Virus record (IMG/VR): IMGVR_UViG_3300009314_000003 | Span: 83,989 to 147,988 of that record | Length of the DNA stretch: 64,000 bases | Strand: one strand, 5' to 3' | DNA from: a virus | Shown: piece by piece, positions 3,701 to 43,308 of the stretch | How positions within the stretch are numbered: the first letter of the stretch is position 1 | Layout of the letters: each line of letters opens with the position of its first letter | The notes under the pieces: model-generated | What the model was told of the DNA's origin: nothing | Database searches by the model: none | The model's input: only the letters and a program-made list of their open reading frames with translations | Program-made: the position numbers and the translations under genes

Positions 3701-6700
3701 GTGTCGGGTCCTTAACTGTTCAACTTGAAGCTCATTACCTAAGATATATTAGCAGGGTTGCTAATGGTATTGATACCCTCCTAAAGCTTGATCCAGAGGT
3801 AGTATCCTTACCTGCTACTATTTTTGGAACGGAAGTTGCCGGGGTCGGTGATATTGAAATTAAGTTACAACAACCGGGGATAATAGACACTACCCTCGAT
3901 CAGATGAGATTAAAGAGCCTTTACATTCTCTTAAGCCGAAAGGACTTCCGCGATTTCCTTGATTCCTGTGAGGATTTGAATATAAGTAGCTTCGATACAC
4001 CAGGTTATTTTACAAGCAGTACACCAGTAAGTAGCTTCGATACACCAGGTTATTTTAGTTATCTTACAAGCAGTATATTGGGGTTTGGACAACAATACCT
4101 TGTTGGACCAGAGCCTCCCACCACATATGATAAATACCTTACCAACGAGGAGGAAGATCATCTCACCAAGCTCGCGAAGAGTATAGGCAAATATTTCGAA
4201 GAGGCACACAAAATGATCAAGGGTAATTACCCTGACCTGGATTTACCTCCGGACGTGCTTGAGGAGAATGGCCATTATATCTTTGGCCCGTCCTTCTATT
4301 TGAAGGCTAAAGGCAGTCTGCAAGAGGATGCTATGAAGAAGACGAGTGAGCTTTTATCAGGTTATCGCTTGTCTGTGGCTTTACAGCTTGCCATTATCCA
4401 GGGTCAGATTACCAATAAAATGTTTATTGATAAACACAACAAGATAGGGGAACGTATAAATGACCTTCTCACTAAACTAAAGGTAGATGAGAAGGTGAAA
4501 GATATACTTAAGCTAGAGAATGTTAGGGATGAGTATGAGCAAATCAATAATGTGATTGGCGTTGAAACGGACACAGGTGGCAATATAACAAATGAAACTG
4601 TATTAGCCTATAAATCGCTAATAGATGCTGATTTACTAAAGGATATAGGTGTAATGGCCGCCGGACGTGTATTTGTTGATGAGAATGGGGTGGAGCGTGA
4701 TATAACACCACAAATGACAAGTAGGCAATTCAGAAGACTTATAATACGCTCCGCGTGTTTTGAGTACGCTTACTTTATGAGTATACTTGAGGAAGCCTTG
4801 AACGAGAAGATAGGACTTAACGGATTGAAGATAGTATATTTTAATGCGGAGGGGGAAACAACCGAGGCTGGTAATGCGGTTAGTGCTGCAATCGGAGGGT
4901 CCGGTGTTAATACAGAAATAAGTCTTGTCAAATTACTTGACAATACACTAAACTTCCAGAACAAGGGCCTCGCAAAAGGCGCCGGTGAATTACAGCGATA
5001 TATAAGGATCACCTCCGCTACCGATACCGATGGGGTTGATTTTGAAGGGGAAGCTATACAGAATATACTCATCAAACTTTATAATGATGCTGTACGCCTT
5101 ATCAAGAATGAAAATCCTGAAGCGTTGATGAATTACTTTGGCTTCAGCGACCTCGGTTCTGCGAAGGAGCGTTATGAATTAGATAAGAAGTTAGCTAAGA
5201 TTGTAGATACATCCACCAACGGTACTATGGATAGGGCATTCCCAACATTTAAGCTTTTCTTCATTGAGGAGGATACACCGAACTGGCTCTTGTTTGATGA
5301 TTTCTATACTTATGACGCTGTTAACTCCATAGATGTTGTCGAGTCAAAGCACGCTGCTAGCTCGACCGCTGTTATTAAACTTTCTAACGTCACAAACAAA
5401 CTCACGGGGGATCCTTTTCAGGATATGTGGAAGGATTCTGATGTTCCCGCCACCTTGCCACGTATTCGCCTCAGGCCTGGCACACCAATCCTGCTTCGAC
5501 TTGGCTACGGCCCTGATTATCGTCATCTTCCTGTTGTTTTTATGGGCACAATCACAGAGGTGAAGCCGGGGCCTGTGCTTGAGTTCACTGCCCAAAGCTG
5601 GGGAGCAGAACTAACAAATTCCGTTGGCTCTAATAAGGGAATGAAATTTGGTGCTTTGTCTCCTGAGAAAACTATTGGTAGTGTTGTGGTCAGTGTTTTA
5701 GACCAACTACCGGGGATGCATCACTTTGGCCGCTGGACAATGAAGGCGCTTGATGATGCAGACCCTAATATGATACCAAATTCCTTTTACAAGATGGCTC
5801 ACTTTGCTAAGAGTGGACCGGCAAAGTGGTTAGCCGGCTGGGGATTGGATTTTGCTGGTGTAGATACGGATATGTATAAGAAACTAATCGGCGATATAAC
5901 TTCTTCCCAGAAGGATTTAGAGAATCTTCTCTCAGGCAGAAGACCAGACCACCTAATGCTAAATATAGGTAATGAACTATATGATAATGTGTACCTGAAC
6001 GGGATAAGGTCTTCGGGGTACGGATGGGCCAATTTCTTGGGAATAGGAAATTTAGATCACCTAAACAACAGAGGTAATTTTGACTGGGTTATATATAACC
6101 AGACAGGCTGGGATGCTCTCTGGGAAGCTTGTCTACATCTGGGGGATTATATTGTACGGCCACTCCCTTATAATGAAGGAACTAATATGCTTCAACAACC
6201 CCCGAGGATGACCCTTTACATTGGCCCGCGTGAGGGATACTACCAACACTCTGACCAGATGTTGTCAAACATGTCTTTAACTGACCAAATTACTGAGGCG
6301 ATGGAGAAGGAACTTAAGGAATTGTTAGATGGGAGTAATAATGGCCCTACTACTACTACAGTTGAACAATTATTTAAGGAGGAACTCCTTGCCCACGCGG
6401 CTGAATTATTTGAGGGGTATACCAGCCCAGGTATTATGGTAGGCATCTACTGGTTAGCAAAACAAGTGCTTTTGGATATGCACCCCGTAGCTCCATGTAT
6501 TACCACAAGAGCTCTTGACATACTGGAAGAGATATTTCCATCTATGCGTAGGGGGCAGCATGCAGGTGTAAAAGTAGGAGGTTTTACAACGTCTGATAGG
6601 GCCGGAGTTTGGCGAATCCTTTGTGTTCTCTTAACGGGTAATCTTGAGGAAACTACTTTTACTGGTATGATTAACAAATACCGACCACAGTCTTTGAAGA

Positions 6701-9172: not shown

Positions 9173-10378
9173 ATGCCACTTGTAACACGAACGAGGAGTG
9201 AGGTCTTAACCAGGCTCCGTAAACACTTTGAGAATGCCGGGCTCAATGCCTTTAATGAGTCTGGAACACCGGAACACGCCATCTTAAACATGATTGCTGA
9301 TGAGATGTCGAGTATTTATTCGTTTGTAGAGCTGAGTTACAATGGTCTGCAGATATCAACAGCAATAGGTATAGATTTGGATAACCTGGCTGCTATTTTT
9401 GGTATCACAAGGAATATATCCCAACCGGCTATGGATAATAGTGACTCCAATTTCAAATTCTATATTGACCCCATCCTGGGAATTGACGCGAGTACTCTAG
9501 CAGCACAACATGGCCTCAGCTCCATAATTATACCGGAGGGGACAATTGTGTCCAATGCGGGTACAAAACAGTACCGCACTACAGCGTCGGTCTCTATGTC
9601 CGGAAGTGATACACAGGTATTTGCCCCTATAGTCGCAATGTCTGTCGGATCACAATACAATGTTGAGGCGGGTATACTAACTGCGCATAATTTAGGGTCT
9701 ATGCCAACACTTAGAAATATTGCTACCAGTATTAGATGTACTAACCTCCTTCCTATTACTTCGGGGGAAAGTACTGAAACAGATGCCGATCTGAGAGTAA
9801 GAGTAACCAGTGCGTATTCCATAGGAGCCACCAGCAACCTCCTGGCAATTTTGGAAGCGGCTCGGGGAGTCGCGGGAGTAGCTGATGCAAGTATTGTGCC
9901 TTATGTCTATGGCTCTGGTACACTTGCTGTCTTTGTAGAGAGTACTGCCCCTGTTGTTGCTGTTGGTACAGTACGTGCTGTGCAAGAGGCGGTCGATAAT
10001 GTTGTGGCCGTCGGCAACCGTGCTTTTGTTAGGTATCCAGATTATAAGGCCTTGAAGATTAGGGCTGAGGTAACTCTTGTTGCTGGTACTGATGGAGACT
10101 CTTACATACAAAGTACCAGGACACAGATCACAAACTTTATAAACAACCTCCCCCGGGGGACAGCATTTAACCCTGACCATCTATTATCCATCCTAGAAGG
10201 TCCTAATGTTATTAATGCTACTATCCTGCGGGTTCAGTATGGTGATTTTGATATTTACACCAGGAAGATACTGAATTTACAAACCTTCCTACCAGTTACA
10301 CAGGAACTTGGACAGACAGAGAAATGGTACACTAATTCTACAATGATAGATATTTGTTTCCCTGGAGCGAATGAGTAA
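9173..10378 (+). CDS. baseplate J-like protein
   Basis: STAIGIDLDNLAAIFGITR, IPEGTIV, GSQYNVEAG and GESTETDADLRVRV motifs typical of Baseplate_J. Confidence 0.9.
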   Translation: MPLVTRTRSEVLTRLRKHFENAGLNAFNESGTPEHAILNMIADEMSSIYSFVELSYNGLQISTAIGIDLDNLAAIFGITRNISQPAMDNSDSNFKFYIDPILGIDASTLAAQHGLSSIIIPEGTIVSNAGTKQYRTTASVSMSGSDTQVFAPIVAMSVGSQYNVEAGILTAHNLGSMPTLRNIATSIRCTNLLPITSGESTETDADLRVRVTSAYSIGATSNLLAILEAARGVAGVADASIVPYVYGSGTLAVFVESTAPVVAVGTVRAVQEAVDNVVAVGNRAFVRYPDYKALKIRAEVTLVAGTDGDSYIQSTRTQITNFINNLPRGTAFNPDHLLSILEGPNVINATILRVQYGDFDIYTRKILNLQTFLPVTQELGQTEKWYTNSTMIDICFPGANE

Positions 10379-12536
10379 GCTTAATAACAGAGATAACCAC
10401 AACTCCTCTAGAACACCCTTACGTCTGTCACGCCTTCCAGAGTGGATCAAGAAGGGCACAGATTCAACTATCTGGTCAGTAATTAATCCTGCCTGCCTAT
10501 CTGTAGAAGATGCTATTGAGTACATTGGGTATGCTTTTGGGGACGCCACACCAGCCGCATTTGACCCACATAACCAGAATCCTACCTACGTTGCTGGCCC
10601 CCTAACTGGAGATATTAACGCTACTTACCATGTTAGTGGGGATATAGATATTATTAAGACACAGGAATTAGAGGAATTCTTCTTTGGACCACCTACGCAG
10701 GTAGTTGCGGAGGATGTTATAAGGCCAATCCCGTATGCAAAGCGTATACCTACCGATATTCATTATATACACAATTGGCAGATGGACGGGACTGGTGAGT
10801 CATTAAGTGCTTTTGCTTTATTACAAGAGAATGCTTATACCGATAGGGATGCCTTTCTCTTTTATGATACCAACTGGACCCCTGTGGGAATGAGTAATGT
10901 TGACAAGAAAACACAGAATTATAATAACACCGGCGCGGATGAGTGGTTAGGTCTCTCCACAGATGGTTTACAAGCAACACTTAATCATATACCTATATCT
11001 GGTACCATTCAGGTGTTAAATATTATGGATCTGGACGATGGTGGACAAGCACAGCCAATCAACACCAATTTCTCTGTTCAAGGGTGTGATATAGTGTTTG
11101 ATAACCCCATCATAGGATCTGGTATGTATATAGTTGAATATGACTATGTACCCAATTACACACTTCGTTGTTTTACCCCATACGCCTGGGTAAGTGATAG
11201 TTACATGCAAGAGTCTCCAAGCTTCAAAGCTAGTTACCGCGGAGTTTCTTCAGACGATATAATACTTGATCCCGATGTCTCAACCTATTTAGCTAGTGGA
11301 GACTTACACAGCCTCGTTAAGCTGAGAGGTACAACTACCACAATTCATCCGAGGGAAATACTTTTTAAGGACAGTATGCCCTACCTACGCAGCCATGCTA
11401 GTGTTCTACGCCCTGGAATGTCGGCCCTGGTAAATTATTCAGGGACACGATACTGTGTTGAGGAGTGGACGAACCCAACCTCAGGCGATTTTCTGTACGA
11501 GGTGGGAATTTTAGATGACTTTGTGAGTACAAATGTTAATATGGTGAGCGTCTTTAATACTGGCGGGGCCGATATTACTTCAGACAATGCGATAAGTATT
11601 TCGGGTGATTGGGTAGTTATTGACTCAAATGATACCCTTTTGGAGCCGGTTAATGTAAGAATCAATTATGAGTATAGTAGTAGTGGTTGGTACACGGCAG
11701 AGACTTTACCGGGGGCTTATGATATTTACGAGGGCTCCTTAGCAATATCAGGTAATTTTGAGGGCGCTGTGATGCCGGCAGTTGGAGTACCTGTTGGAGA
11801 GGTTGTATCGGGAGCTATATCTGATCTTCAGGTGCCCAGATTCACACTAGAGAAACATCAGGACATAGTTAGTACATCCTATGGGAAAGAACCTATGCTG
11901 ATAGAGGATATATCCGCCGAGATACCTGTTTATACCCTGGACCGTGTTGGTCAATATCTGAAAAGGACTGCACCCCTTAGTATGAGGGAAGAAAATTATA
12001 TGGCAGCGGTAGATATAGAACCGTTCCCAGGCCCCTTATCTGGCTTACTATACCTAGATTATCCAGAGGTGTATGAACAGCTTGAGAAATGTAATAACTA
12101 CCTCGACCCAACACTGAGGAACAGGGAATTCCTTTCAGTTCGAAAATGGAGGAAGTGGTTGGTCCTACTCTCAAAACAAGGCCTTCCAGAGCCAGAGACT
12201 AATTACTGGACCACCAGTAGTACTGATACTTGTTACCTAAACTTTATTAATATGGATACCAACCAAACGGATAGGCTGAGTAATGGAGACAAAATGGAAT
12301 ATGAAATATCAGTCCCGAACCTTGAGATAACTTCCTTCACCTTTGACTGGGATGGCAATATATGGATTGTTGGTTTCAAAGTAGGAGAGGGGGGTAATTA
12401 TACTTCCCACTATGTAAAATTACAGCCAAGATATGATTACTGCATTAGTGTCCCAGAGGAGGACGATGCAATGATGGAACGGGTATACTTCCGCGAGTAT
12501 TATCCAGAGGGCGTGGAGAGAACATCAGATGTCTAA
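10371..12536 (+). CDS. putative baseplate wedge/structural protein
   Basis: 721 aa, follows J; N-terminal LSRLPEW resembles wedge subunits; acidic and beta-rich. Confidence 0.55.
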   Translation: MSKLNNRDNHNSSRTPLRLSRLPEWIKKGTDSTIWSVINPACLSVEDAIEYIGYAFGDATPAAFDPHNQNPTYVAGPLTGDINATYHVSGDIDIIKTQELEEFFFGPPTQVVAEDVIRPIPYAKRIPTDIHYIHNWQMDGTGESLSAFALLQENAYTDRDAFLFYDTNWTPVGMSNVDKKTQNYNNTGADEWLGLSTDGLQATLNHIPISGTIQVLNIMDLDDGGQAQPINTNFSVQGCDIVFDNPIIGSGMYIVEYDYVPNYTLRCFTPYAWVSDSYMQESPSFKASYRGVSSDDIILDPDVSTYLASGDLHSLVKLRGTTTTIHPREILFKDSMPYLRSHASVLRPGMSALVNYSGTRYCVEEWTNPTSGDFLYEVGILDDFVSTNVNMVSVFNTGGADITSDNAISISGDWVVIDSNDTLLEPVNVRINYEYSSSGWYTAETLPGAYDIYEGSLAISGNFEGAVMPAVGVPVGEVVSGAISDLQVPRFTLEKHQDIVSTSYGKEPMLIEDISAEIPVYTLDRVGQYLKRTAPLSMREENYMAAVDIEPFPGPLSGLLYLDYPEVYEQLEKCNNYLDPTLRNREFLSVRKWRKWLVLLSKQGLPEPETNYWTTSSTDTCYLNFINMDTNQTDRLSNGDKMEYEISVPNLEITSFTFDWDGNIWIVGFKVGEGGNYTSHYVKLQPRYDYCISVPEEDDAMMERVYFREYYPEGVERTSDV
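11148..11186 (+). repeat. 39-bp segment with an exact inverted copy at 27020-27058
   Basis: GTACCCAATTACACACTTCGTTGTTTTACCCCATACGCC is the reverse complement of 27020-27058. Confidence 0.95.
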
Positions 12537-17426: not shown

Positions 17427-19532
17427 ATGAGCCAACTACGTTTCAAATTGGTTGATAATGTAACCTCAACAGCTTCACTTGCTGCTATTTACTCAACGGC
17501 GGGACAGGGCAGTTACTCCCTAAAATTAGAGCCCGGAGTGGCGGCTAAACTACGAGCCGCACAGAGTTATAATGCTTCCTCGGGGGAAAGCGACTACGGA
17601 CATTTTGAGTTCGGGAATAATCAACCGGCGAGTGGTTACTACAGTCTTCCCTTTCCCTGGCCAGTTCCAAACTCAGATAGTTATGATGATGTTAAGTCAG
17701 ATATGTTGGTGGGGCCACGAGACCAAAACGTTTGTTGGGTTATTTCTGAACCTAATGGTACCCATATAAAGTGCGGAGATATTAGTAATATACGGGTAAA
17801 TAATCTTAGAACAGGGGGTTATCTACCAATAACAGAGACACAATACCGAGGAACTCAAGAGGATCTATGGGATAGTACCCCTCTCAATACTACCTCTGGT
17901 CAATATGTCAGATTGGTAATGGGCGCTGATCAAGTTGTTGATGCTGTACCGATGGCTTCCTTCACCGAATATGTTGTAGAGGATAGTTCTCTCGTAGATA
18001 GACAGCGCCTCTTTCAACCCATACCAACCTTCACCGACTGGAGTCTCGAGAATGTAGAAGGCACTTGTGTTATGAAGGTAGAGGAAAATTATGTAGACGA
18101 GTTTAGTATATCAGGACAACTGAGAGATATTACATGGCAAAACGATCCATTTAATCTTATAGAGGTTAGAGTCCCACGCAGGAACTGGTATCAGCCATGG
18201 TTCGCACAGGTTAAAAAGGCATCCGAATTCTTTAAAGGCACATTCATCTCTACAGAGGATATTAACCAATCACCAAGACCTCCACTCGTTGTGGACGAAG
18301 TTCCATCCTTTGTTAATCGTTCCCTTCTCGCCCTCTGTCAGGGTAACGTCAATATCTTGGGCAATGGGAACGATATTATAGATCTTGAGGGGGATGGTAA
18401 TTGGGCCGCGGGAATTGTGTTAAAGATAAATGGTGTAAAGAGGAATGACCTCATCAAAGATGTTCTCGAAGAAACAGGACACGTACTTCTCAGGCGGCCA
18501 ATTGGAAGGGCCAGCCGAGTTACTACATCCTACGCGGTCGATCCAGACTCCTGGGTCGAGATATCCTCCGTGGACCTAAATCCCAGACCTAACCACCTAA
18601 AACCACAATGGATGGATGGTTTCACCATTAAGGATAGTACTCTCACACTTTATGTTCAGTCTGGAGAGACAGGGCAACTTCTTATAGGGGCCTCAATTAA
18701 GCCCGGCAGCCTTTACTACTACGACGCCGATTCTGGTGATCCCAGTGACTACCTGCAAGAGGACAAACATATCTCAATCGCAAAGATATTTATACCTCAA
18801 AACTCCAAGCCTATCCTAATCGATGTACGCCAACAAGGCGGCGGTTTAAGACCTGAAGATCAACTACAGAATCACCTTTATGATATTAAAAGCCATACCA
18901 AACTCGGTTTCTATTACGGGTACCCCATTAAGGGTAATGCTGTTATTATAACTCTTCCACAACTGTTATTCGAATCCTTTTACCGTCGCTTCCTGGATAA
19001 GAAGGTAAATACCGTAGATAACAAAACAGACACCAGCAATAGACCCCTGGAGGTGTTCGCCCTTACCGAAGAGCCTTACCTCGATTATTCCCAATACAAC
19101 TGGGTAAGAAGAACATGGACTACCCAACCATTTACAGTTACCATAACAAAAGAAGGTACAAATCACATAGCCCTTGATACTACTGACTATTCCAACCGTA
19201 CCCAATTACCTACCCTCGACCCTTATGCAAACACAGAAGAGTATCTCTTTTACTATAGAGACGGAAAGATATATATAAATAATAGTGACTACGATAGTTT
19301 GGCTGTCGACTATACCTATCTATCCGAGGAGGAAGAGATTATTGAGGATGCATACGTAACAACCAGGAACTTCATAGCCGAGGCAATTAGTAGGATGTTT
19401 CCAGCTGGCACATATTTAGTACTACGTTACGAAGAGGAAAAGGATTTTGGCCCGCAAGCTAAGGCTCGTATGCAACAATATGTATATACCACCGATGACT
19501 CCGGCAACCTTATAGATGTAGGTAAGATATAA
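17427..19532 (+). CDS. virion structural protein
   Basis: 701-aa ORF in the coupled operon; VDLNPRPNH and IDVRQQGGGL segments; C-terminal ISRMFPAGT resembles wedge-protein ends. Confidence 0.55.
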   Translation: MSQLRFKLVDNVTSTASLAAIYSTAGQGSYSLKLEPGVAAKLRAAQSYNASSGESDYGHFEFGNNQPASGYYSLPFPWPVPNSDSYDDVKSDMLVGPRDQNVCWVISEPNGTHIKCGDISNIRVNNLRTGGYLPITETQYRGTQEDLWDSTPLNTTSGQYVRLVMGADQVVDAVPMASFTEYVVEDSSLVDRQRLFQPIPTFTDWSLENVEGTCVMKVEENYVDEFSISGQLRDITWQNDPFNLIEVRVPRRNWYQPWFAQVKKASEFFKGTFISTEDINQSPRPPLVVDEVPSFVNRSLLALCQGNVNILGNGNDIIDLEGDGNWAAGIVLKINGVKRNDLIKDVLEETGHVLLRRPIGRASRVTTSYAVDPDSWVEISSVDLNPRPNHLKPQWMDGFTIKDSTLTLYVQSGETGQLLIGASIKPGSLYYYDADSGDPSDYLQEDKHISIAKIFIPQNSKPILIDVRQQGGGLRPEDQLQNHLYDIKSHTKLGFYYGYPIKGNAVIITLPQLLFESFYRRFLDKKVNTVDNKTDTSNRPLEVFALTEEPYLDYSQYNWVRRTWTTQPFTVTITKEGTNHIALDTTDYSNRTQLPTLDPYANTEEYLFYYRDGKIYINNSDYDSLAVDYTYLSEEEEIIEDAYVTTRNFIAEAISRMFPAGTYLVLRYEEEKDFGPQAKARMQQYVYTTDDSGNLIDVGKI

Positions 19533-20729: not shown

Positions 20730-20734
20730 TAGCG

Positions 20735-21727
20735 ATGAGCGGTGGAGGTACAGGAGCGGGGTATAGCTCAGGTACTACCTACATATCCCCGGGCCATAAA
20801 GTAGAGGGGAAAGCTATAATAGGCGCTGGAATCATAAATGTACAGGAAAGCAACCAGGATATATACGGTGCGCAAAACTATACAACCCTCTTCCAGACAG
20901 AAGAGGGGGTAACTATATCCTCAATGCCTTTACTACCTGAAGGACGAAGTGTGGATAAGATACAAGAGAAGATATGGGTACGGGGTGATGGGTCTTTTGA
21001 AACCCTTTTCCCGGTGCTCACACTTAATCAAGGCGAGTCAGACTTAACCACTCTAACCGGTCGTTTTTCACAAGGAAGCATTTCTACGAGGACAACATTT
21101 CAGGCTCCCCCTGTTCACAAAAACACCTATATTACCCTGGTATACAGTACTTACCTAGTGTCTAGTTTTGCCTGTTGGGATCAAGATGATGATGAGATTG
21201 TGGCGCCGTCTGATGTAATGTTATCTGATCATACATATAAGGTAATTAGAATTACCGCAGGGTATGCTGATGTTGTTTATGACGAAAGCGGACCCGCGGT
21301 TTCCGTTTATGACGCCGCTGCGCCTATATCCACAGAGGTACAGGAGACTTTTGAGTCCTCAGGTTCAACCGTTTTAGAACTTAGAACAACACCATGGATA
21401 GACTTCCAGAGGTACTGGAGTGGTGGTGACAGTTATACCCCCATAGAGGTTTTCCTTACTCCCTCCGGAGGAGGCGACCCAATTTCTCTCCCGGATAGAA
21501 CTTTCTACTCCAACCGATTACTACAGCCTACTCTCTCAGGTATTGACCTGGAATTCTTTCTCCGGGGTAATTTAGTCTTCTTAAACACGGCAGATTTCGC
21601 AGGAGCTCAGGTCATCTACCACACGAAGTGTGAGAAGGCCAAGGTCCAAATTGATATGCATCCTAAGGGCGACATGACACCATGGGTTAGTGAATATACC
21701 ATTAAATTCAGAGCACAAATTGACTAA
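20735..21727 (+). CDS. virion structural protein, C-terminal part of a probably split gene
   Basis: Frame is open back to about 20657; ends with KVQIDM...DMTPWVSEY, a motif shared with paralogue C-termini. Confidence 0.6.
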   Translation: MSGGGTGAGYSSGTTYISPGHKVEGKAIIGAGIINVQESNQDIYGAQNYTTLFQTEEGVTISSMPLLPEGRSVDKIQEKIWVRGDGSFETLFPVLTLNQGESDLTTLTGRFSQGSISTRTTFQAPPVHKNTYITLVYSTYLVSSFACWDQDDDEIVAPSDVMLSDHTYKVIRITAGYADVVYDESGPAVSVYDAAAPISTEVQETFESSGSTVLELRTTPWIDFQRYWSGGDSYTPIEVFLTPSGGGDPISLPDRTFYSNRLLQPTLSGIDLEFFLRGNLVFLNTADFAGAQVIYHTKCEKAKVQIDMHPKGDMTPWVSEYTIKFRAQID

Positions 21728-22835
21728 GCAGATCATAAAAGCACGTGAGCTATACCTGGAGAAGCTGGGAGAGTTCCTGGCTGAGAATAAAAACCAGAGT
21801 GAGGAGGGTAAGTACTTCCAGGCCCTACGCCTATTAGTTGAGGCATTTAGGGATAGGCCTTATATTCACCTCCCCGTAGAGGGAGAGCGGGCTACCAGCA
21901 AGCCCTTGGATGATGTCTTCCAACTTCTTGAATCAGAGCACGGCGATATTGAGGGTAGTGTCGACAGCATTATAAACAGTTTGGAGGAGGTAGAGAGTTC
22001 CTTGGGGCTGCAAGTTGATGAGGTTCAAGCCCTCGTAACCAGTCTTGAAATGGATATAAATAGCCGCCGTCTTAAATCAGGGGCCGGAGAAGAGGAAACG
22101 GACTATATAGAGCTGGAGGAAAACTTTGCAAGGTATGGCCTTACTCTGGAGGAAATTAGTTCATTGGATCAGACTTCCTTCATTGATTCTGTCGAGTGGA
22201 TACCAGCAACAGGGATGGGAGGTTATCTTTGGTTCGGTGATGTCTCAACTAATCATACCTCACCAACAACACAGGGACTCATTGATATTAACAATGAGGT
22301 CGTAACAATTCAACATTTATGGATGACTGGTACTCTAAGTACTTCTCCACTAGAGCAAGAGCTTATAGCAATTATAGGAGACGATACCGGGCTTGGACCG
22401 GAAGATGATATGGAGTTTAGTACAGATGCCACAGAGTCAGAAAACCCACCCCCATTTGCGGAGGGTGTTTTGGAAGTCAACCTAACAATCCCCAAACAAA
22501 TTAGTACTGTATCTCTAGGTACTGACCCGACGGATATGGTAGAGAAGGTTATCATCACTGATTTTCAAGGAGCGGAACAGGTTTATCCAATGAACAATGG
22601 TACTGTGACCCTCCCTTCTACAACAACCTCTAAAATTGCGTTTCATATTAGTCGTAGTAATAGCCTATCTCCAATGCCCTTCTGGCTTAGAGCCCTTATT
22701 ATTTCCATCAGTGACTCTGATGGAAACTCTTCCCTCTATGCTCAATTTCACGATGCCACAGGGGATCTAGTGACATCTAGTGGCACGAACAGGAGTATAC
22801 CAAACAAGAAAATAATACTCCCGGGGCTGGGATAA
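21690..22835 (+). CDS. virion structural protein, truncated at a 59-bp repeat (start may be TTG 21720)
   Basis: Coiled-coil plus beta architecture like 19539 and 27669; last codons (PGLG*) are supplied by the repeat copy. Confidence 0.6.
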   Translation: MNIPLNSEHKLTKQIIKARELYLEKLGEFLAENKNQSEEGKYFQALRLLVEAFRDRPYIHLPVEGERATSKPLDDVFQLLESEHGDIEGSVDSIINSLEEVESSLGLQVDEVQALVTSLEMDINSRRLKSGAGEEETDYIELEENFARYGLTLEEISSLDQTSFIDSVEWIPATGMGGYLWFGDVSTNHTSPTTQGLIDINNEVVTIQHLWMTGTLSTSPLEQELIAIIGDDTGLGPEDDMEFSTDATESENPPPFAEGVLEVNLTIPKQISTVSLGTDPTDMVEKVIITDFQGAEQVYPMNNGTVTLPSTTTSKIAFHISRSNSLSPMPFWLRALIISISDSDGNSSLYAQFHDATGDLVTSSGTNRSIPNKKIILPGLG

Positions 22836-22879
22836 TATATGAAGCAAGGACCTACATATCAACGATATAATATACCGCC
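22821..22879 (+). repeat. 59-bp direct repeat, copy 1
   Basis: CCGGGGCTGGGATAATATATGAAGCAAGGACCTACATATCAACGATATAATATACCGCC is identical to 29796-29854. Confidence 0.95.
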
Positions 22880-22979
22880 AGATGGAAGTTTCACTGAGAA
22901 TTCTGGTTATGGTGCAAAATGTAAAGTAGAATTTATTTCAAAATCAGATCTCTTGAGAGCTCGCGGTTATAAAACTTGA
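22839..22979 (+). CDS. 46-aa chimeric mini-ORF
   Basis: MKQGPTYQRYNIPPD is identical to the start of ORF 29814 and is fused to unrelated AT-rich sequence (GSFTENSGYGAKCKVEF...). Confidence 0.45.
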   Translation: MKQGPTYQRYNIPPDGSFTENSGYGAKCKVEFISKSDLLRARGYKT

Positions 22980-23002: not shown

Positions 23003-26000
23003 ATGCCTATTTTTAATTGTCCAGATAATAATTGTAATCATTGTGGAACAGATTTATGTATTTGTTGTCCAAATGGATATGAATCTTTTGATGCTGGTGA
23101 TACAATTGAAGTAAAATGGCAAGCTCCATATAATTCTACTGATTATGTTGTAAATGTCACACTTTATAAAGGAAATGAATTTGCAGCAATAATAGCAGAA
23201 TATTTTAATGCCCATCCAACAAGCTATTATCGTAAAAGCTCAATTCCTTGGACAATTCCAACATTTCTTGAACAGCGAGATGATTATAGAATTAAGGTAA
23301 CTATTATTGCTGGAGACAATCTTGGTCAATCGGATTTTAGTGATAATTATTTTGAAATCGTTAATACTATAAATCAACCTCCTGTAGCTGATGCTGGAGA
23401 TGATCAAACTGTTGTGGAAAATAGTATTGTACAACTTGATGCTTCAGGTTCATACGATCCAGATGGTGATACAATAACATATGCTTGGAGTGCTCCTGTT
23501 GGAATTACACTTACCAATGCAAATAGTGTGAATCCAATTTTTACAGCTCCAGAAGTTACTGAAGATACAGAATATCAATTCATACTTGTTGTTAATGATG
23601 GGGAATTTGATTCAAGTCAAGATGCTGTAACTATTACAGTAGAAAACTTCATTCCTAATCAGGCTCCAACTGCAGATGCAGGGGAAGACCAGGATATCAA
23701 TGAAGGTATGTTTGTTACTCTTGATGGTACAGGTTCATTTGACCCTGAAGGTAGTAATCTAACTTATACTTGGACTGCTCCGGTAGGAATTACATTAAGT
23801 AATGTTAATGCTGTTTCTCCAACATTTACTGCACCAAATGTAGATGATGATACTCCTTACTCGTTTACTTTAGAAGTATCAGATGGAGATTTAACAGATA
23901 CAGATGATGTAACAATAACTGTTCTCAATGTAGCAGTACCGCAGCCTCCTGTAGCGGATGCCGGGGATAACCAGACAGTTGATGAAGGAGATTTAGTTAC
24001 GCTAGATGGGTCTGGTTCATATGATCCTGAAGGTGAAGATGTGACATATATGTGGACTGCTCCAGATGGAATTACTTTATCAGATCAATCAATTGTAAAT
24101 CCTACATTTACAGCTCCGGAAGTCATTAGTGTTACTGATTATATATTTACTCTAACTGTAGAAGATCCACACGGATTGTCAGATACAGATAATGTTACAA
24201 TAACTGTAAATCCAGTTGCTGATCCACCAGTTCTTGGTGGACAATATAATTATAATAATGACGACTATTATACTGCTGTTAGCCTAATTCGGACTAATAG
24301 TGGTGTATATAACTTTACGCCTGAATACTTTTTAGGTCCTGGTAATCCATGCAGCCATTGGCGCATTTGCCCTGATGGCCATGAAGGTGCTAACTACGAT
24401 ATTAGCGGTTCTTTCCCTTTCCCTGAATGGGAAGATGTTATCTACTTCAATCATACATATACCGACATTCCAAGTGGTGACTTACTTGGAACGTGGCGCT
24501 CATATGTAAAATATATAGGTGATGACTCCTGGACGGAATTCCTTGGAGGCTTGGAGATTACCCAGGATATGTTACCTCAAGCTCTCCCCGCGGAGCTAAC
24601 TATTGAGGCATCATCTATCCAAAACCACGTTAATATCACTCTTGGAGATGATTTTACCTGGATGTATACCGCCGGGGGTGTATGGAGTGATATTACACAC
24701 TGTATATACCCCGAGGAGTACTCTAGTCCTTACCTCCTTGCTGATATAGTCCCTGATCAAAGTAATTGTGTTAATTATAGTGATGGGGGTCTATGTCATA
24801 ATCCTAACGATCTGATGGCAGGTAGTGTAATATCTCAGTATAACTTGTCTACGACGGCGTATGGGCCTTACAACTTAGAACTAACAATAAGGGGAATGAC
24901 ACAAGGATCAATAACATGCCGGCTTGGGTTGGAATCTCCAAGTGCAACATTTAATTCTAACGGAACACACTCAGGAAACATAGAAGCATCCTCTTTGTCC
25001 CCAAACACCTTCTATATCTACCCTACTCCCGACTTTAACGGGATAATTGATAATGTCTCTCTCAAACTTTCTGGAGGAGGAGATGAATTAATAAGTAACG
25101 GTGATTTTTCCAACAGTCTCCAAGATTGGAGTGGAACTACTTGTTGGGAACATGCCTATTTTCCTTTCCCGATCCCGAAAAATACTGTATCACAGGAAGA
25201 TTGGTGTGTGAATACCCATGGTCTATGTTTACACACATTTTCCGACGATGTAACGACATGGCACGTTCCCACTTATTATGCCCGGGGGTATTTAGCGGGG
25301 GCCTTTTCTGTCTTCCTCGGAACCTCCTCCTATTCTTCGTCAATAAACTATGAAAACTATCCCTTAAACCCTTATGAACTCACAATAACCTGTGATGTTA
25401 GTGATATACTTACTGTATACTCAAACGCCCAATTCTATATCTATAATAATACTTACCAGAGCGAGGCACTTACACCTGGTAATGGTATTATCACCTACAC
25501 AGTAACTGCAACTGCAGGTAATTCAGCTAACTTGGAGGGTAATTGGACAATAGAATGGCAGGATGGTAGTGGTTCTACACTAGAATCTATTACCCAATCT
25601 GTTCCAGCCGACACCTTCTCACCACCACCCGATTTCGGGAATGTAGATTATTCACTTGAGCATCCAAATGATTGGAACCTCACAATTACCTGTGATGTTA
25701 GTGATATACTTACTGAACACTCAGACGCCTTATTCTATATCTATAAAGAGGGTTCCACAGGTACATCTATACAACCCAATGATAATAACACGATCACCTA
25801 CACAGAAACTGCAGGTAATTCAACGGACTTGGAAGGTAATTGGATAATAAAATGGCAGAACGGTGGAGGTGAGGTAATAAATTCCACCACTTGCACGGTT
25901 TCAAGTCTTCCACAGTTTGAGGATGTAACAGATAACCTCTCAATAGATTATAACAATTGGCCCGCCACCCCCTTTGAACTCACCATAGAATGTAATGTTG

Positions 26001-27676
26001 CGGCTATAATTAATGATTCCCAATACCTAGGGACTGATGAGTTCTATATCTCTAATAGTAACTACTCAAGTGATCCGCTTCCACCTGATAATAATGATAT
26101 TATCACCTACACAGCTGCAGGCGACGAGGGAGGTTTAGAAGGGATCTGGACAATAGAATGGCAGGATAGTGAGGGTGGTTTAATAAATTCCACTGACTAT
26201 CCTATCACTATCAACCACACCCTACCTAATTTTGTATCAGATGAACATTATACATCAATAAACTATGAGGACTGGAGTGGAAATCCCTATGAACTCGCCA
26301 TAACCTGTGATGTTAGTGATATACTTACTGAACACTCAGACGCCTTATTCTATATCTATAAAGAGGGTTCCACAGGTACATCTATACAACCCAATGATAA
26401 TAATATTATCACCTACACAGTAACTGCAAGTGATTCAGCGGATTTGGAAGGTAATTGGATAATAAAATGGGGAAATAGTAATGATTATTCAATACGTTCT
26501 ATTAGTCACCAAGTAACTGAATTCCCCTCTCCCCTCGTCTTAAATACTCCTACATCCGATTGGCAGGTAGATTATAATAACTATTCCTCAAACCCTTATG
26601 GGCTCACAATTACCTGTGATGTTAGTGATATACTTACTGCGCACTCATACGCCCAATTCTATATCTATAAAGAGGGTTCCACAGGTACATCTATACAACC
26701 CAATGATAATAATATTATCACCTACACAGTAACTGCAACTGCAGGTAATTCAGCTAACTTGGAGGGTGATTGGACAATAGAATGGCAGGACAGTGGGGGT
26801 AATGTAATAAATTCTGCTACCTGCTCAGTCAGCACCTCCCCGTCCCTTCCCACCTTTGGGGAGGTAGAATACACCATCATACCAGATCTTAGCGTGTCAC
26901 CGGTACGATATGATTTTAGTATAGAGTGTGATGTTGATGATATACTTACTGAACACTCAGACGCCCAATTCTATATCTATAATAATACTTACCAGAGCGG
27001 GGCACTTACGCCTGGTAGTGGCGTATGGGGTAAAACAACGAAGTGTGTAATTGGGTACCTTGCGGAGAACGAGTTAGAAGGGACCTGGACAATAGAATGG
27101 CGGAACAGTGGGGGTGAGGTAATAAATTTTCATAATGAAGAAATAGATCAGGACGTTATTCAAGGAGTAACGCTTGATGGTACTACATACAACACACCCC
27201 AGGGCAACTCATTTTACATTCAAATACCAGGAGGTTCCTCTCCATACAAACAAAATACTACTGATATTGGCCCAATACAACTACAATTAACTCAGTATGA
27301 AACTACCAAGACCTGGACTTCTCCACAGCCGTACAACTCTGATACTGGTGTATCAATGCTCTCCCTGCACTCCTATGACCTGGTTCCATTTACAACAGGA
27401 GATAGAGAAACCTGGCTCAAATATGAGATAGTAACAGAAGGAGGAGATACCTACCCAATAACCCCCGTAAATAGGCCCGGGCAATACCCGGTCATATATA
27501 ATGTGAATAGTACCCTACCGGAGGAGCTTAGAAGTGATAGGCAACAAAACTTTAATGAGGGGTTCATAGACCAGAAGGTGTTTTCCTGGAAAGTTAGAAT
27601 TACAATGCTCCGCCCGGGGAATGAGGTTAATAGAACCCCTATAGTTTATACATACCGGATGAGATATTATGAGTGA
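23003..27676 (+). CDS. mosaic adhesin/structural protein: Cys-rich N-terminus, 3 PKD-like domains, 6 Ig-like repeats, baseplate-paralogue C-terminus
   Basis: PPVADAGDDQTV...LDASGSYDPDGD..TYAW x3; YELTITCDVSDIL...FYIY...ITYT...LEGNW x6; C-terminal KVRITMLRPGNEVNRTPIV. Confidence 0.8.
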   Translation: MPIFNCPDNNCNHCGTDLCICCPNGYESFDAGDTIEVKWQAPYNSTDYVVNVTLYKGNEFAAIIAEYFNAHPTSYYRKSSIPWTIPTFLEQRDDYRIKVTIIAGDNLGQSDFSDNYFEIVNTINQPPVADAGDDQTVVENSIVQLDASGSYDPDGDTITYAWSAPVGITLTNANSVNPIFTAPEVTEDTEYQFILVVNDGEFDSSQDAVTITVENFIPNQAPTADAGEDQDINEGMFVTLDGTGSFDPEGSNLTYTWTAPVGITLSNVNAVSPTFTAPNVDDDTPYSFTLEVSDGDLTDTDDVTITVLNVAVPQPPVADAGDNQTVDEGDLVTLDGSGSYDPEGEDVTYMWTAPDGITLSDQSIVNPTFTAPEVISVTDYIFTLTVEDPHGLSDTDNVTITVNPVADPPVLGGQYNYNNDDYYTAVSLIRTNSGVYNFTPEYFLGPGNPCSHWRICPDGHEGANYDISGSFPFPEWEDVIYFNHTYTDIPSGDLLGTWRSYVKYIGDDSWTEFLGGLEITQDMLPQALPAELTIEASSIQNHVNITLGDDFTWMYTAGGVWSDITHCIYPEEYSSPYLLADIVPDQSNCVNYSDGGLCHNPNDLMAGSVISQYNLSTTAYGPYNLELTIRGMTQGSITCRLGLESPSATFNSNGTHSGNIEASSLSPNTFYIYPTPDFNGIIDNVSLKLSGGGDELISNGDFSNSLQDWSGTTCWEHAYFPFPIPKNTVSQEDWCVNTHGLCLHTFSDDVTTWHVPTYYARGYLAGAFSVFLGTSSYSSSINYENYPLNPYELTITCDVSDILTVYSNAQFYIYNNTYQSEALTPGNGIITYTVTATAGNSANLEGNWTIEWQDGSGSTLESITQSVPADTFSPPPDFGNVDYSLEHPNDWNLTITCDVSDILTEHSDALFYIYKEGSTGTSIQPNDNNTITYTETAGNSTDLEGNWIIKWQNGGGEVINSTTCTVSSLPQFEDVTDNLSIDYNNWPATPFELTIECNVAAIINDSQYLGTDEFYISNSNYSSDPLPPDNNDIITYTAAGDEGGLEGIWTIEWQDSEGGLINSTDYPITINHTLPNFVSDEHYTSINYEDWSGNPYELAITCDVSDILTEHSDALFYIYKEGSTGTSIQPNDNNIITYTVTASDSADLEGNWIIKWGNSNDYSIRSISHQVTEFPSPLVLNTPTSDWQVDYNNYSSNPYGLTITCDVSDILTAHSYAQFYIYKEGSTGTSIQPNDNNIITYTVTATAGNSANLEGDWTIEWQDSGGNVINSATCSVSTSPSLPTFGEVEYTIIPDLSVSPVRYDFSIECDVDDILTEHSDAQFYIYNNTYQSGALTPGSGVWGKTTKCVIGYLAENELEGTWTIEWRNSGGEVINFHNEEIDQDVIQGVTLDGTTYNTPQGNSFYIQIPGGSSPYKQNTTDIGPIQLQLTQYETTKTWTSPQPYNSDTGVSMLSLHSYDLVPFTTGDRETWLKYEIVTEGGDTYPITPVNRPGQYPVIYNVNSTLPEELRSDRQQNFNEGFIDQKVFSWKVRITMLRPGNEVNRTPIVYTYRMRYYE
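23372..24215 (+). repeat. three tandem PKD-like domains (about 95-aa period)
   Basis: Units start near 23372, 23657 and 23942; visibly AT-rich codons compared with flanking genes. Confidence 0.85.
25341..27140 (+). repeat. six tandem ~100-aa Ig-like repeats with patchwork nucleotide identity
   Basis: Exact shared blocks, e.g. 25688-25788 = 26303-26403 (101 bp) and 26347-26429 = 26656-26738 (83 bp). Confidence 0.9.
27020..27058 (-). repeat. 39-bp inverted copy of 11148-11186 inside repeat 6
   Basis: Encodes GVWGKTTKCVIGY in place of the usual IITYTVTA strand. Confidence 0.95.
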
Positions 27677-29810
27677 AAATAGAAGAAAACAGGTGTATAC
27701 CACTCTGGTAAAAGAATTTGTAAGACGTTGGGGCCGAGTTCCAACCCAGGCAGAGCTATATCGTTCAATTCAGGACTCATTCTACAAACCACTGGCTAAA
27801 CCTCTGGTACCGAAGAACAAGGCAAGAAGTAGTGCAGAGTATTTTGGGCAAACAATGAAAGGCCTGCTCGGGGACACTAAAGACGTCCTGGAGATACTTA
27901 AGGGAACTGAAGATGCCAATCTGCAATTGAGGGTCGGTGTTGAAGACGGGGCAAGAGACGTGGCTAATCAAGCTCGTGCTGCAATAAAACGTATTCGGCA
28001 TCAAGACACAATACACAAAAGCAAGGTAGCGCTTGTTGATGTTCTACCGGAACCTATTAAGCGTCTATCCCCTTATACTCGCTATGGTACCAGTGTTACC
28101 CTTCTACAGGATTCACTAGCGCCGATCTCCTATATCCCCACCGTTATCCCAACCTCTGATAAAACAATTGATAGATACGAGCTAAATGAATTCTCCCTTC
28201 CTTACTCAGCCTTTGTAAGGGCTAAGGAAGATGCCTCGTACTCCGGATTCACTCTGGAACTGTTAATACAGGATGATGGAACAGATATACAGGGCCCTAT
28301 AAATATTACTCGCCTCTATTATGACGGTTCACCAGTTATGATGACTATTGAAGTATCCGGGGATGATGGTGAATGGACTACAGTAACCACAGTAAATCCA
28401 ATTGGCCGTACGGAATATATTATCAATGAATCTACCACAAAACTCCGGCTCACATTTACTCAATCGGGAAATTACAGTAAGATATACATCAAAGACCTAC
28501 AGGTGTACCGAGAAAGGTATCAGCCCGAGGGAATTTATGTCTCCGGGCCATATGATCTTAGTAAGGCCGCCGGGCGGCTCAAGGTTGAACCAAATCAATA
28601 CATACCCAGTGATACGTCAGTGATATGGGAATATGGATTGGACTATCCCCTATCCGGGAGGTATGTTAGTACTTCAGGAGATATAGTTCATCCGGATAGT
28701 CCACTATTTACAAACAATACCACCTATGATACCTCAGTGGAAAGTGGGTCTTTACACTATTCAGATATAGTTCCTTTTGATGCTTTGTCAGAGAACTTTC
28801 ACTCTCCGGGTTGGAAAAGTATCCCCACCCGAGGAACCCTCTTTAATGCTGAGCTGGATGAAAGTAATAGCACCTCACTATATAATGGTGCTGGCGGGTC
28901 ATACAATAACTCCATACGCCATATCGCCACCTTAGATAGTAAGGTAATAGATGAATCAATTAAGATCACCTATGGTAAGGATTGCTGGAAGTTTAGTGAG
29001 ACAGATGCCCCGGTAATAATACTGAATGAGGATGGAACACAAACCCAAATTTCAACCCCCTTTCATCACTGGATGACACACTTAATTGTCAGAGGACAAA
29101 CGTCTTCAGTGAGATTCAACAATCCGGCCCACCCAAGGGACGCTGCTAAAAGCGCCATCAAAGAAATAATCCTACAAAACACATCCACAGGGGAAATTAT
29201 TATAGACCAACTCTTCGACGACCCCATTACTATCGTTAAGGGAATATGGAAATGTATTCTGGTCTATAATCTTCTAGATAGTGAAAGCCCACCAGAGAGC
29301 TTCCCCCTTGATCCCAGAGCCGCCGCCTGGACCGGTATAGATCCCTTCCAGGTAGTTACACCCGGTGACGATATATCTTTCATGATTCAGCCTTTTCCTG
29401 CCACACGGGTCAGTATTGAAAATATAATAGATGCCGCATCTCTTTGTACAAACATAAACCGATTTGCCATTGAAGTACAAGATGGGGGTCAGAAGAAGAT
29501 CCTTATGCCACAGGCATATACTTTAGGCCTTACTGATATACTTGGTAGCGAGCCGTGGTTTATATACTCGACCGAAGATACCCTAGCAGGCTTCTATGAC
29601 ATATCTTATATGAAGGAAGTTGATGAGCCCATAGATAATATATTTCTCAGGGCAAGGTTAGAGACAGAAGATCCAAACAAGACACCAATCATTCGCGGGG
29701 TTACTTTGTCTGTTGATGAACATCTATGGGACACAGTGCAGCAGGAAGAAGCAGGCATAACTGATTACACAGAAGGAGAGGAGCCGGAACAACAGCCGGG
29801 GCTGGGATAA
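27669..29810 (+). CDS. virion structural protein (paralogue family)
   Basis: IYIKDLQVYRERYQPEGIYVSGPY and C-terminal LRARLETEDPNKTPII motifs. Confidence 0.65.
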   Translation: MSENRRKQVYTTLVKEFVRRWGRVPTQAELYRSIQDSFYKPLAKPLVPKNKARSSAEYFGQTMKGLLGDTKDVLEILKGTEDANLQLRVGVEDGARDVANQARAAIKRIRHQDTIHKSKVALVDVLPEPIKRLSPYTRYGTSVTLLQDSLAPISYIPTVIPTSDKTIDRYELNEFSLPYSAFVRAKEDASYSGFTLELLIQDDGTDIQGPINITRLYYDGSPVMMTIEVSGDDGEWTTVTTVNPIGRTEYIINESTTKLRLTFTQSGNYSKIYIKDLQVYRERYQPEGIYVSGPYDLSKAAGRLKVEPNQYIPSDTSVIWEYGLDYPLSGRYVSTSGDIVHPDSPLFTNNTTYDTSVESGSLHYSDIVPFDALSENFHSPGWKSIPTRGTLFNAELDESNSTSLYNGAGGSYNNSIRHIATLDSKVIDESIKITYGKDCWKFSETDAPVIILNEDGTQTQISTPFHHWMTHLIVRGQTSSVRFNNPAHPRDAAKSAIKEIILQNTSTGEIIIDQLFDDPITIVKGIWKCILVYNLLDSESPPESFPLDPRAAAWTGIDPFQVVTPGDDISFMIQPFPATRVSIENIIDAASLCTNINRFAIEVQDGGQKKILMPQAYTLGLTDILGSEPWFIYSTEDTLAGFYDISYMKEVDEPIDNIFLRARLETEDPNKTPIIRGVTLSVDEHLWDTVQQEEAGITDYTEGEEPEQQPGLG

Positions 29811-29854
29811 TATATGAAGCAAGGACCTACATATCAACGATATAATATACCGCC
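29796..29854 (+). repeat. 59-bp direct repeat, copy 2 (likely native gene junction)
   Basis: Spans the stop of 27669..29810 and the start of 29814..30080. Confidence 0.95.
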
Positions 29855-30080
29855 CGATGCGCCACTCTCCAGCCAGATGCTTAATGATATATTTGATGGG
29901 TGGTTGGTTGGTTTTGCTGTTATATTTAATACACCTCTGCAGAATATGACTGACCTCAGAGAAATTTGTGGGGACATAGCCAAAAACCTGGCCACGTTTG
30001 ATAAGCAGGATGCAATGGCCCGTGGAATATTAGGCGACATTGACCAAGATGATCATACCAGTAACTGGAGACATGTATAA
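29814..30080 (+). CDS. small virion-associated hypothetical protein
   Basis: 88-aa ORF coupled to both neighbours. Confidence 0.6.
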   Translation: MKQGPTYQRYNIPPDAPLSSQMLNDIFDGWLVGFAVIFNTPLQNMTDLREICGDIAKNLATFDKQDAMARGILGDIDQDDHTSNWRHV

Positions 30081-31633: not shown

Positions 31634-32029
31634 ATGTCCGCGGTAAGATATGCAACAACTATTCCCTTCCCTCGTGCCACGGTAAGTATAACCAGACAGG
31701 GCACACTCATCCGGTACTTCCGGGCCTCCGATGAGGACGGACAAGTTGAATTCTATGACTATGAACTCCCTTATGGTTATAAGTGGGATGTGAAGTATCG
31801 CCCATCAGGACAGAGTTATTGGAACTTTCACGAGGCTGTAGAATTACTGGAAGGTTTTGATGAGGGAGGTGTTGATATAGCACCCCCAGATGGCTCCACA
31901 TATAGCACTACTTACACTGGTCTTGATGATGAAGGAGGTAATGGTATAGCACCCCCAGGTGGCCCCACATATAACATAACACCCCCAGATGGCTCCACAT
32001 ATAGCACTACTTACACTGGTCTTGACTAA
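31634..32029 (+). CDS. structural protein, N-terminal part of a possibly split FN3 protein
   Basis: Ends in duplicated PPDGSTYSTTYTGLD. Confidence 0.55.
   Translation: MSAVRYATTIPFPRATVSITRQGTLIRYFRASDEDGQVEFYDYELPYGYKWDVKYRPSGQSYWNFHEAVELLEGFDEGGVDIAPPDGSTYSTTYTGLDDEGGNGIAPPGGPTYNITPPDGSTYSTTYTGLD
31859..32025 (+). repeat. local tandem duplication
   Basis: Exact 46-bp copies at 31881-31926 and 31980-32025 with a diverged partial copy between them. Confidence 0.9.
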
Positions 32030-40483: not shown

Positions 40484-40521
40484 CAGCTAGAACAACATAA
40501 AAAGGAGAATATATATAACTG

Positions 40522-43230: not shown

Positions 43231-43308
43231 TGGTAGCGGGAACCGGATTCGAACCTGCGGCCCCCTGCTCCCAAAGCAGGTGCGCTGCCCGGGCTGCGCC
43301 ACTATCCG
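43231..43308 (-). tRNA. chimeric pseudo-tRNA: tRNA-Pro(UGG) body with tRNA-fMet-like 3' end
   Basis: CGGATAG TG GCGC AGCCCGGGCA GCGC A CCTGC TT TGG GA GCAGG GGGCC GCAGG TTCGAAT CCGGT TCCCGCT A CCA. D and anticodon arms pair; acceptor stem does not and the T stem is disrupted. Confidence 0.8.

Follow-up and report, generated by a model that had tools for sequence, protein, structure and literature searches.

How does the tail module of a phage come to carry exact copies of its own short sequences, some of them many kilobases apart and one of them inverted? The question is raised by a window of 64,000 nucleotides (nt), bases 83,989-147,988 of one linear, 147,988-bp IMG/VR viral contig (IMGVR_UViG_3300009314_000003) with a CheckV completeness of ~77%. 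From ~0.8 to 42 kb, the plus strand of this window holds the tail module of a myovirus, in which a 1557-aa adhesin-like gene (Pfam match PKD/K319L-like, 5.6e-40) and several other genes bear the repeats in question (Table 1; positions are those of the window unless the contig is named). An earlier note on this DNA had taken the repeats for one candidate system of short-patch templated shuffling, focused on virion adhesion genes. Receptor-binding proteins set phage host range and therefore a route by which they acquire new sequence matters.

All the repeats listed in that note were recovered at the coordinates it gave, and the reading frame, which it had found usable in most of them, is kept in all coding patches. 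We consider it reasonably probable that they arose in the tail module of this large marine myophage as by-products of three ordinary processes and that no dedicated apparatus is needed. Slippage or unequal crossing-over would create and remove the in-frame tandem duplications at 3983/4028 and 31881/31980; homologous exchange, as gene conversion or unequal crossover, among the six tandem units of the adhesin would give rise to mosaic exact blocks; and template switching over long distances, a rare event of replication or break repair, would copy 38-64 nt of native tail-gene sequence to unrelated sites. Selection on the receptor-binding protein would then decide which patches persist, these being kept where the change is tolerated or favoured. 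As a single system, on the other hand, the repeats fall apart, since two are tandem duplications, the adhesin blocks point to homologous exchange and a repeat of 56 nt forms a hairpin. The case shows that one should ask how each repeat arose before reading a set of exact short repeats as a "system".

In the whole contig, we counted 30 exact pairs of at least 20 nt in 11 families, 19 of the 30 pairs lying within the adhesin units. The number of repeated 20-mers was 328, against a mean of 0.05 (maximum 1) in 20 first-order Markov shuffles, and therefore none of the listed repeats is due to chance. Their enrichment in tail genes is weak: 5 of the 11 families fall in the tail region (P 0.17), and the figure for families of at least 30 nt (5/7, P 0.021) was obtained with a region set post hoc and is not convincing alone.

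Table 1. Positions of the repeats, patches and principal genes discussed in the text (ORF, open reading frame)
Feature	Position	Strand	Description
2378-aa protein	763-7899	+	SLT lysozyme domain
Exact 30-nt pair	3983/4028		
In-frame tandem duplication	3983..4057	+	45-nt period, 30 nt exact; lies within the 2378-aa virion protein that has the SLT domain
Baseplate_J protein	9173-10378	+	
Four Laminin_G_3 proteins; several large proteins without family		+	tail module
Exact inverted 39-nt pair	11148-11186 / 27020-27058		
Donor of 39-nt patch	11148..11186	+	native in 721-aa tail/baseplate-module gene (10371-12536); encodes VPNYTLRCFTPYA
Recipient of 39-nt patch	27020..27058	+	exact reverse complement, in frame, in adhesin unit 6; encodes GVWGKTTKCVIGY
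Donor of third patch	18593..18630	+	segment A (15-17 nt) then B (23 nt), in 701-aa tail gene (17427-19532)
Recipient of third patch	contig 10284-10322 (outside window)	-	small ORF, ~92 kb from donor, outside structural module
Exact 59-nt pair (64 nt with 1 mismatch)	22821/29796		
Derived junction copy	22821..22884	+	last 4 codons and stop of 381-aa gene, 3 nt, start and 15 codons of 46-aa ORF (22839-22979)
Native junction, donor	29796..29859	+	end of 713-aa gene / start of 88-aa gene
1557-aa adhesin-like gene	23003-27676	+	three PKD domains, middle region, six ~100-aa tandem units, C-terminal domain
Six ~100-aa tandem units	25379..27223	+	residues 793-1406; bear exact 28-101-nt blocks, mosaic
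Exact 28-101-nt blocks between units	25373-27128		
Exact 46-nt pair	31881/31980		
Tandem repeat	31877..32025	+	99-nt period, 46 nt exact; 3' end of 131-aa ORF (31634-32029)
tRNA-Pro(TGG)-like gene	43231..43310	-	weak, degenerate acceptor stem (Rfam, ARAGORN)
Hairpin copy 1	43316..43371	-	56 nt; 5 nt upstream of tRNA-like gene; -25.5 kcal/mol, z -5.7
Hairpin copy 2	44019..44074	-	91% identical; directly upstream of ribosome-binding site of ORF 43700-44005(-); z -5.9

Three patches copied between distant sites

The direction of copying could be read for three ectopic patches by means of distant homologues of the donors and, in the case of the 39-nt patch, of the five paralogous adhesin units as well. 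One distant relative of the phage was reached, a syntenic 52-kb IMG/VR contig with 34-38% protein identity, whose 274-aa adhesin consists of one unit and the C-terminal domain (35% identity over aa 1353-1555).

In the inverted 39-nt pair, the two copies belong to a 721-aa tail protein and to adhesin unit 6. A full HMMER scan with the 721-aa protein returned eight proteins including the query, and among the five that were aligned VPNYTLRCFTPYA falls on columns conserved in the family, with R266 and P270 invariant and EYDY just ahead. The tail gene is therefore the donor and the adhesin the recipient, so that a switch would have carried sequence of gene 10371-12536 into unit 6 in inverted form. 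In unit 6, the 39 nt stand in place of an "ITYT" strand and its following loop, of which the core is present in the other five units and takes the form AYSYEF in the relative's single unit. The flanks of the two copies show no similarity to each other. A second template was also sought for the 15 nt after the patch, and no match of at least 11 nt was found elsewhere in the contig.

The second patch is a direct copy of a gene junction, with one C/A difference in 64 nt. The relative has its 274-aa adhesin followed by a homologue of the 713-aa protein and then by a 92-aa protein that aligns with the 88-aa protein from residue 5; the copy at 29796 is therefore native and the one at 22821 derived. 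The 713/88-aa junction would thus have been copied to the junction between the 381-aa gene and the adhesin. Outside the 64 nt, no similarity is found in the DNA and the flanking proteins are unrelated.

The third patch, which the earlier note could not see, links gene 17427-19532 with a small ORF 92 kb off, and would be a fold-back product. In the donor, segment A precedes B; in the recipient, B comes first (23 nt in direct orientation, contig 10284/window 18608) and is joined to the reverse complement of A (17 nt), with a 1-nt overlap. Segment B starts with ATGG and ends with CCAT(TA). Judged by its arrangement, such a structure is as expected from a nascent strand that folds back or switches strands. 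The donor peptide LKPQWMDGF is conserved as LRPGWMD-F in the relative, and the recipient ORF is invariant on 18 contigs.

The three patches share identity with an ectopic donor, sharp edges and the absence of flanking homology, and two of them have an inverted (39 nt) or composite (23+17 nt) structure. For these three, the template-switch mechanism proposed in the note is supported, but it does not extend to the other repeats, which are not of one mechanism. Polymerase switching at a microhomology of 2-4 nt would be the enzymatic step. Comparison with paralogous unit 1 points to GG at the left and GGTA at the right switch point of the 39-nt patch, and ATT is a candidate at the internal switch of the third. 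The proposed focus on adhesion genes likewise holds in part: two of the three recipients are at the adhesin locus, while the third patch went into a small ORF that is not part of the structural module. The window provides a clean case from nature of three templated patches, each 7-92 kb from its donor and one with a fold-back signature, for which the source of the copy can be distinguished from its target.

Exchange among the adhesin units

The same tail module that holds the long-range patches also holds tandem-duplication and unit-exchange differences between assembled variants. The adhesin unit, modelled with AlphaFold (AF2) from the six units and the relative's unit, is predicted to be a beta-sandwich (pLDDT 77.7), and Foldseek returned weak matches of this model to immunoglobulin-like (Ig-like) folds (best E 8.6e-3), on which it was assigned to no family. 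Along the alignment of units, the nearest paralogue switches segment by segment, as in gene conversion between tandem units. In columns 71-125, unit 5 has 100% identity to unit 4, but in columns 126-170 its perfect match (100%) is unit 1. Units 1 and 6 group together in columns 71-125, with 75% identity to each other against 33-56% to units 2, 4 and 5. By this pattern, the mosaic is a signature of exchange between tandem units, and such exchange would toggle the strand-loop segment between states present in other units.

Between variant adhesins and that of the window, the only differences are I1238T and V1243E, both in unit 5, and both states are present in unit 2 (a protein-level match). This pair may reflect such exchange, but may also represent two point mutations or a choice of path by the assembler. 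An equivalent change, T>A at 25503 (V834E), was found in contigs of public sequencing runs, within a 55-nt block common to units 1 and 5. We also observed a 3-nt insertion, ATA, after 25442 in contigs of three of the four runs. In the PKD region, a joint 23377->23942 that skips 564 nt, or two PKD repeat periods, occurs in contigs of two of the four runs and is weak, its shorter side being 29 nt; it may reflect variation in PKD copy number or a repeat artefact.

Both ends of the adhesin are met in other surroundings. In contigs of all four runs, the match to the adhesin starts at 23073 or stops at 27691 with unlike sequence beyond, and in one run (X6) this is also seen before 22930; the adhesin locus is therefore present, in parts, within other contexts too. 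The depth of X6 rises ~4-fold near both adhesin ends, and another co-occurring phage seems to share them. These contexts, together with a GC content of 0.39-0.42 at 22-28 kb that is below that of the flanks, could be explained if the 59/64-nt junction repeat were a scar left when co-infecting relatives swapped modules at a gene boundary that is conserved, with no intragenomic copying. We regard this as unlikely. The relative keeps the adhesin C-terminal domain, the 713-aa gene and the 88-aa gene in synteny, which leaves no inserted cassette, and on the same order we had ruled out an adhesin cassette inserted between the 59-nt direct repeats. Moreover, identity ends sharply on both sides of the repeat between unrelated flanking proteins, and the other contexts break at 22930, 23073 and 27691, away from it. 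Template switching within the genome remains our reading of the junction copy.

Local tandem duplications and variation between assemblies

The two duplications at 3983/4028 and 31881/31980 are of a simpler kind. Both are head-to-tail, in frame and inside single genes, and for one of them an allele short of a whole period exists: a 98-aa allele of the 131-aa ORF, found on 5 contigs against 8 for the longer form, lacks exactly 33 residues, or one 99-nt period. Two full-length alleles of the 2378-aa protein differ only at D1078G (13 versus 3 contigs), within the first 30-nt copy. Variation at these two sites is what slippage or unequal crossing-over would be expected to yield at direct repeats.

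Queried for exact matches, the protein collection shows this phage on as many as 19 contigs, with a few variant alleles. We counted variation in the 27 proteins with matches in the collection (18,128 aa), dropping differences of start codon, length and fragmentation. Three of the nine variant events fell in the 355 residues (2%) under exact repeats (binomial P 5.8e-4, Poisson P 2.6e-4). To this extent, the diversity of structural genes that the note had pictured is borne out, as assembled variants do differ at the repeats. The 99-nt indel and D1078G are hard to explain by assembly error.

Is a dedicated system present?

As the note had observed, no machinery of a diversity-generating retroelement (DGR) or of an invertase is visible. 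A six-frame search of the 147,988-bp contig for reverse transcriptase (RT; PF00078) gave no match, while the control search matched 3 of 14 genomes; the profiles of serine recombinase (PF00239), tyrosine recombinase (PF00589) and RecA likewise had no match in the contig, and no annealing protein or invertase was named by PHROGs (116 ORFs) or Pfam (127 ORFs). The check that the note had proposed for the rest of the genome, a search for an RT or annealing protein, came back empty in a contig that is ~77% complete. As for the suggested participants, RecD2, the WGR protein and the PD-(D/E)XK (Cas4-like) nuclease, nothing ties any of these genes to the patches beyond presence in the genome. Genes that make breaks are many, namely five LAGLIDADG ORFs, two HNH matches, three inteins and a group I intron, and none adjoins a patch.

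Comparison with other phages was made by counting exact pairs of at least 20 nt with the same script in five genomes. Against the 30 of this contig (148 kb), T4 (169 kb) has 47, ME3 (235 kb) 14, KLEB27-3 (217 kb) 7, 0305phi8-36 (219 kb) 2, one of which is its 6,479-nt terminal repeat, and MTATph1 (177 kb) 1. In the four comparators of 177-235 kb, that terminal repeat is the sole exact repeat of at least 30 nt with copies at least 1 kb apart; T4 has 10 such pairs, and four sites belonging to the longest of them, when checked, proved to lie between genes or at their ends. The 35 kb of the relative hold one intragenic repeat family and no ectopic patch. The density of ectopic coding patches is thus above that of four comparators and the relative, in a sample too small for the contig to be called an outlier among phages. 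A 20-nt exact direct match at contig 68607/90826 (window 6838), which connects giant proteins of 4392 and 2378 aa, may represent one more small patch, the fourth; with 0.05 repeated 20-mers to be expected in a genome by chance, it is a borderline case. Weaker composite matches, made of clusters of 11-16-nt matches, were judged to be near chance level and were not used.

Several points weigh against three ordinary processes as the whole account. The switch-point microhomology is deduced from paralogous units, as no pre-patch allele was seen. Two of the three recipients lie within ~5 kb at the adhesin locus, for which a post hoc hand estimate gives a chance of ~0.003, and this clustering could reflect targeting rather than selection. 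The three ectopic coding patches exceed the count in these few and mostly unrelated comparators. Part of the variation at repeats could be assembly error. Finally, the contig is incomplete and therefore machinery could sit in the missing part.

It could accordingly be proposed that a dedicated, RT-independent system targets the adhesin locus with tail genes as template, and that RecD2, WGR, the PD-(D/E)XK nuclease or a homing endonuclease drives the break or switch. Such a system would account for two of the three recipients being in the adhesin or directly before it, for a 39-nt patch that strikes the strand-loop segment variable between units and variants, for three donors out of three being tail genes, and for the raised patch density in a genome rich in break-making genes. 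Against it, each site has one patch, identical in all assemblies seen (7 adhesin contigs, 18 small-ORF contigs), the contigs of the four runs show no alternative patch at a site, the third recipient is a non-structural gene, and neither a repeated signal sequence beside the patches nor a gene linked by position or family was found. We hold such a system to be quite improbable; a dedicated, adhesin-focused diversification is not supported by patches that are single and fixed at each site and to which no gene is linked. Perhaps long-range template switching is raised in this phage, possibly with the assistance of an enzyme and maybe begun by homing-endonuclease breaks, and writes tail-gene sequence into the ligand-facing strand-loop of the adhesin and the junction upstream of it; we give this an outside chance. 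If this is true, it would be an RT-free counterpart of the targeted diversification of receptor-binding proteins, and if the adhesin locus were a preferred recipient, this would point to targeted diversification by a new route; such a preference is not shown by the data at hand.

A different proposal is that function keeps the dispersed copies: in late transcripts the 39-nt pair would form a long-range RNA duplex, while the junction copy would serve as a portable region for the initiation of translation. The two 39-nt arms are on the same strand, so that their RNAs would be complementary, and the junction patch extends across a start codon, with 18 nt before and 41-46 nt beyond, and lies 24 nt ahead of where the adhesin starts. 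The third patch, part direct and part inverted, is explained by no simple motif; each patch has two copies only and none in the relative; and function would account for retention of the copies, not for their origin. Its chances appear poor to us.

The linkage of patches to their flanks rests on independent assemblies. The window is nearly whole within contigs from marine and seawater metagenome runs of two studies, and ORFs that read through each patch and both flanks are called on many JGI, ENA and Logan contigs. The patch peptide of the 39-nt recipient is present in all four adhesin protein records on 7 contigs (JGI, ENA), 18 contigs carry the 721-aa protein, and four records on 26 contigs have the PGLG end of the 381-aa gene. 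The public-run contigs were built with 31-nt words, unable to bridge the 39- or 59-nt repeats, and in three of the four runs they end exactly 30 nt into these repeats (breaks at 11157, 22850, 27029 and 29825); therefore both contexts of each repeat occur in the reads, with nothing bridged. An artefactual origin of the patches, in metagenome assembly or in chimeras of amplification, is highly improbable, for even though the contig is a metagenome assembly and the 31-nt-word contigs break right at the repeats, an assembler cannot invent a repeat, the patch-flank words occur in four runs of two studies, and the read-through ORFs recur in the JGI, ENA and Logan assemblies.

Relation to known systems

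Templated mutagenesis from imperfect direct or inverted repeats, known for phage T4 and for quasi-palindromes, is the nearest relative of the long-range patches. In its described cases, short nearby repeats and few bases are typically involved. Here, too, a stretch is replaced by a direct or inverted copy, several bases at once, and a strand switch yields inverted or fold-back products; the differences are donors 7, 16 and 92 kb off, tracts of 38-64 nt and no prior imperfect repeat in sight. Part of the work of Abraham & Hazkani-Covo 2021 (PMC8604942) describes arm homogenisation and spacer inversion through inter- and intramolecular template switching at inverted repeats. The patches of this phage also resemble the products of microhomology-mediated break-induced replication (MMBIR), of fork stalling and template switching (FoSTeS) and of templated "filler" insertions in their long-range and presumably microhomology-primed copying, in their inverted or composite inserts and in the return to the original template. 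Such events are known mainly from eukaryotes and bacteria. The microhomology here is deduced from paralogous sequence. A title-level look at the literature found no title on long-range templated patches in phage tail genes, which is no proof of absence.

The exchange among units is similar to the domain recombination of tail-fibre adhesins, where tandem units of a receptor-binding protein exchange or duplicate segments by homologous recombination and variants coexist in populations. In T-even phages, domain duplications of gp37 alter host range. The units here differ from those of gp37 in being, to judge by the Foldseek matches, Ig-like sandwiches.

Two specialised systems share a feature with this locus. 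As in a DGR, template sequence is moved into a variable region of a phage receptor-binding protein; unlike in a DGR, there is no RT, the recipient has a single fixed copy, one copy is inverted, and the copies are exact rather than adenine-mutagenised, being 100% identical (39 nt; 23+17 nt) or with 1 C/A difference in 64 nt. Invertible tail-fibre segments and shufflons (Gin/Cin/Hin, Rci) also have an inverted repeat pair in tail genes, but no serine or tyrosine recombinase is found here. The layout differs as well, with a single inverted pair whose arms are both internal to plus-strand ORFs; as these same-sense ORFs hold the arms 15.8 kb apart, inversion would break both genes.

Other elements of the window and the genome

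We read the 56-nt hairpin repeat as a shared upstream RNA or DNA element before two transcription units, with no shuffling. One arm change between the copies preserves pairing (U-A to U-G), and no further copy was found in the contig at up to 16 mismatches. The tRNA-like gene beside copy 1 had been described as a tRNA fused at the T-loop. Its likeness to a tRNA does end after the T-loop, because the Rfam match (30.8 bits versus a gathering score of 29) is limited to model positions 8-63 of 71 and the acceptor stem drawn by ARAGORN has several mismatches; a fusion as such is not demonstrated.

A gene for an IS200-type Y1 transposase (62088-62696, minus strand; PF01797, 1.3e-34) adjoins a small methyltransferase-like ORF. 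Transposition of single-stranded DNA of the IS200/IS605 or REP/RAYT type was considered and rejected, as the coding patches are not hairpin-ended and the sole hairpin repeat, with its two copies, is ~18 kb from the Y1 gene. The same minus-strand arm encodes RecD2, the WGR protein, clamp-loader-like ATPases and a class II ribonucleotide reductase, the last (55795-59964, minus strand) being a 1389-aa protein with two intein/homing-endonuclease insertions. An intein splicing domain is also present in the large terminase (L003:145-2427). The five LAGLIDADG ORFs lie just downstream of the tail-sheath gene (contig 54372-60206; L003:18372-19262, L004:1674-6206), and among them Rfam places a group I intron (L004:3593-3835; 77.3 bits, E 9.7e-18). 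A 24-nt exact repeat at contig 55270/59060 probably represents paralogous intron cores.

As to affinities, the major capsid protein is 25-32% identical to that of the Bacillus phage 0305phi8-36 group. When 12 kb were compared with the phage collection by Megablast, nothing matched, and no close cultured relative is present in that collection. The viral contig collection returned no match to the exact 39-mer or to a degenerate pattern of the junction peptide, and no related locus via the 721-aa protein or the adhesin C-terminus; the metagenome contig collection returned none via the 713-aa protein or a 36-nt adhesin stretch. Word-based protein searches retrieved the phage's own proteins only.

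Three consecutive giant ORFs (4392, 2634 and 2378 aa; contig 63491-84563 and window 763-7899) precede the baseplate genes, and the relative has a 2443-aa counterpart of the 2378-aa protein. The 396-aa and 330-aa genes at 19539-21727 are two halves of what is a single 685-aa gene in the relative (L064:1945-4002). Among the replication genes, the minus strand encodes a cpYpsA SLOG-family protein (46691-47200), a vWA protein adjoining an AAA_5 ATPase (47916-51307) and the WGR-domain protein (52505-52852).

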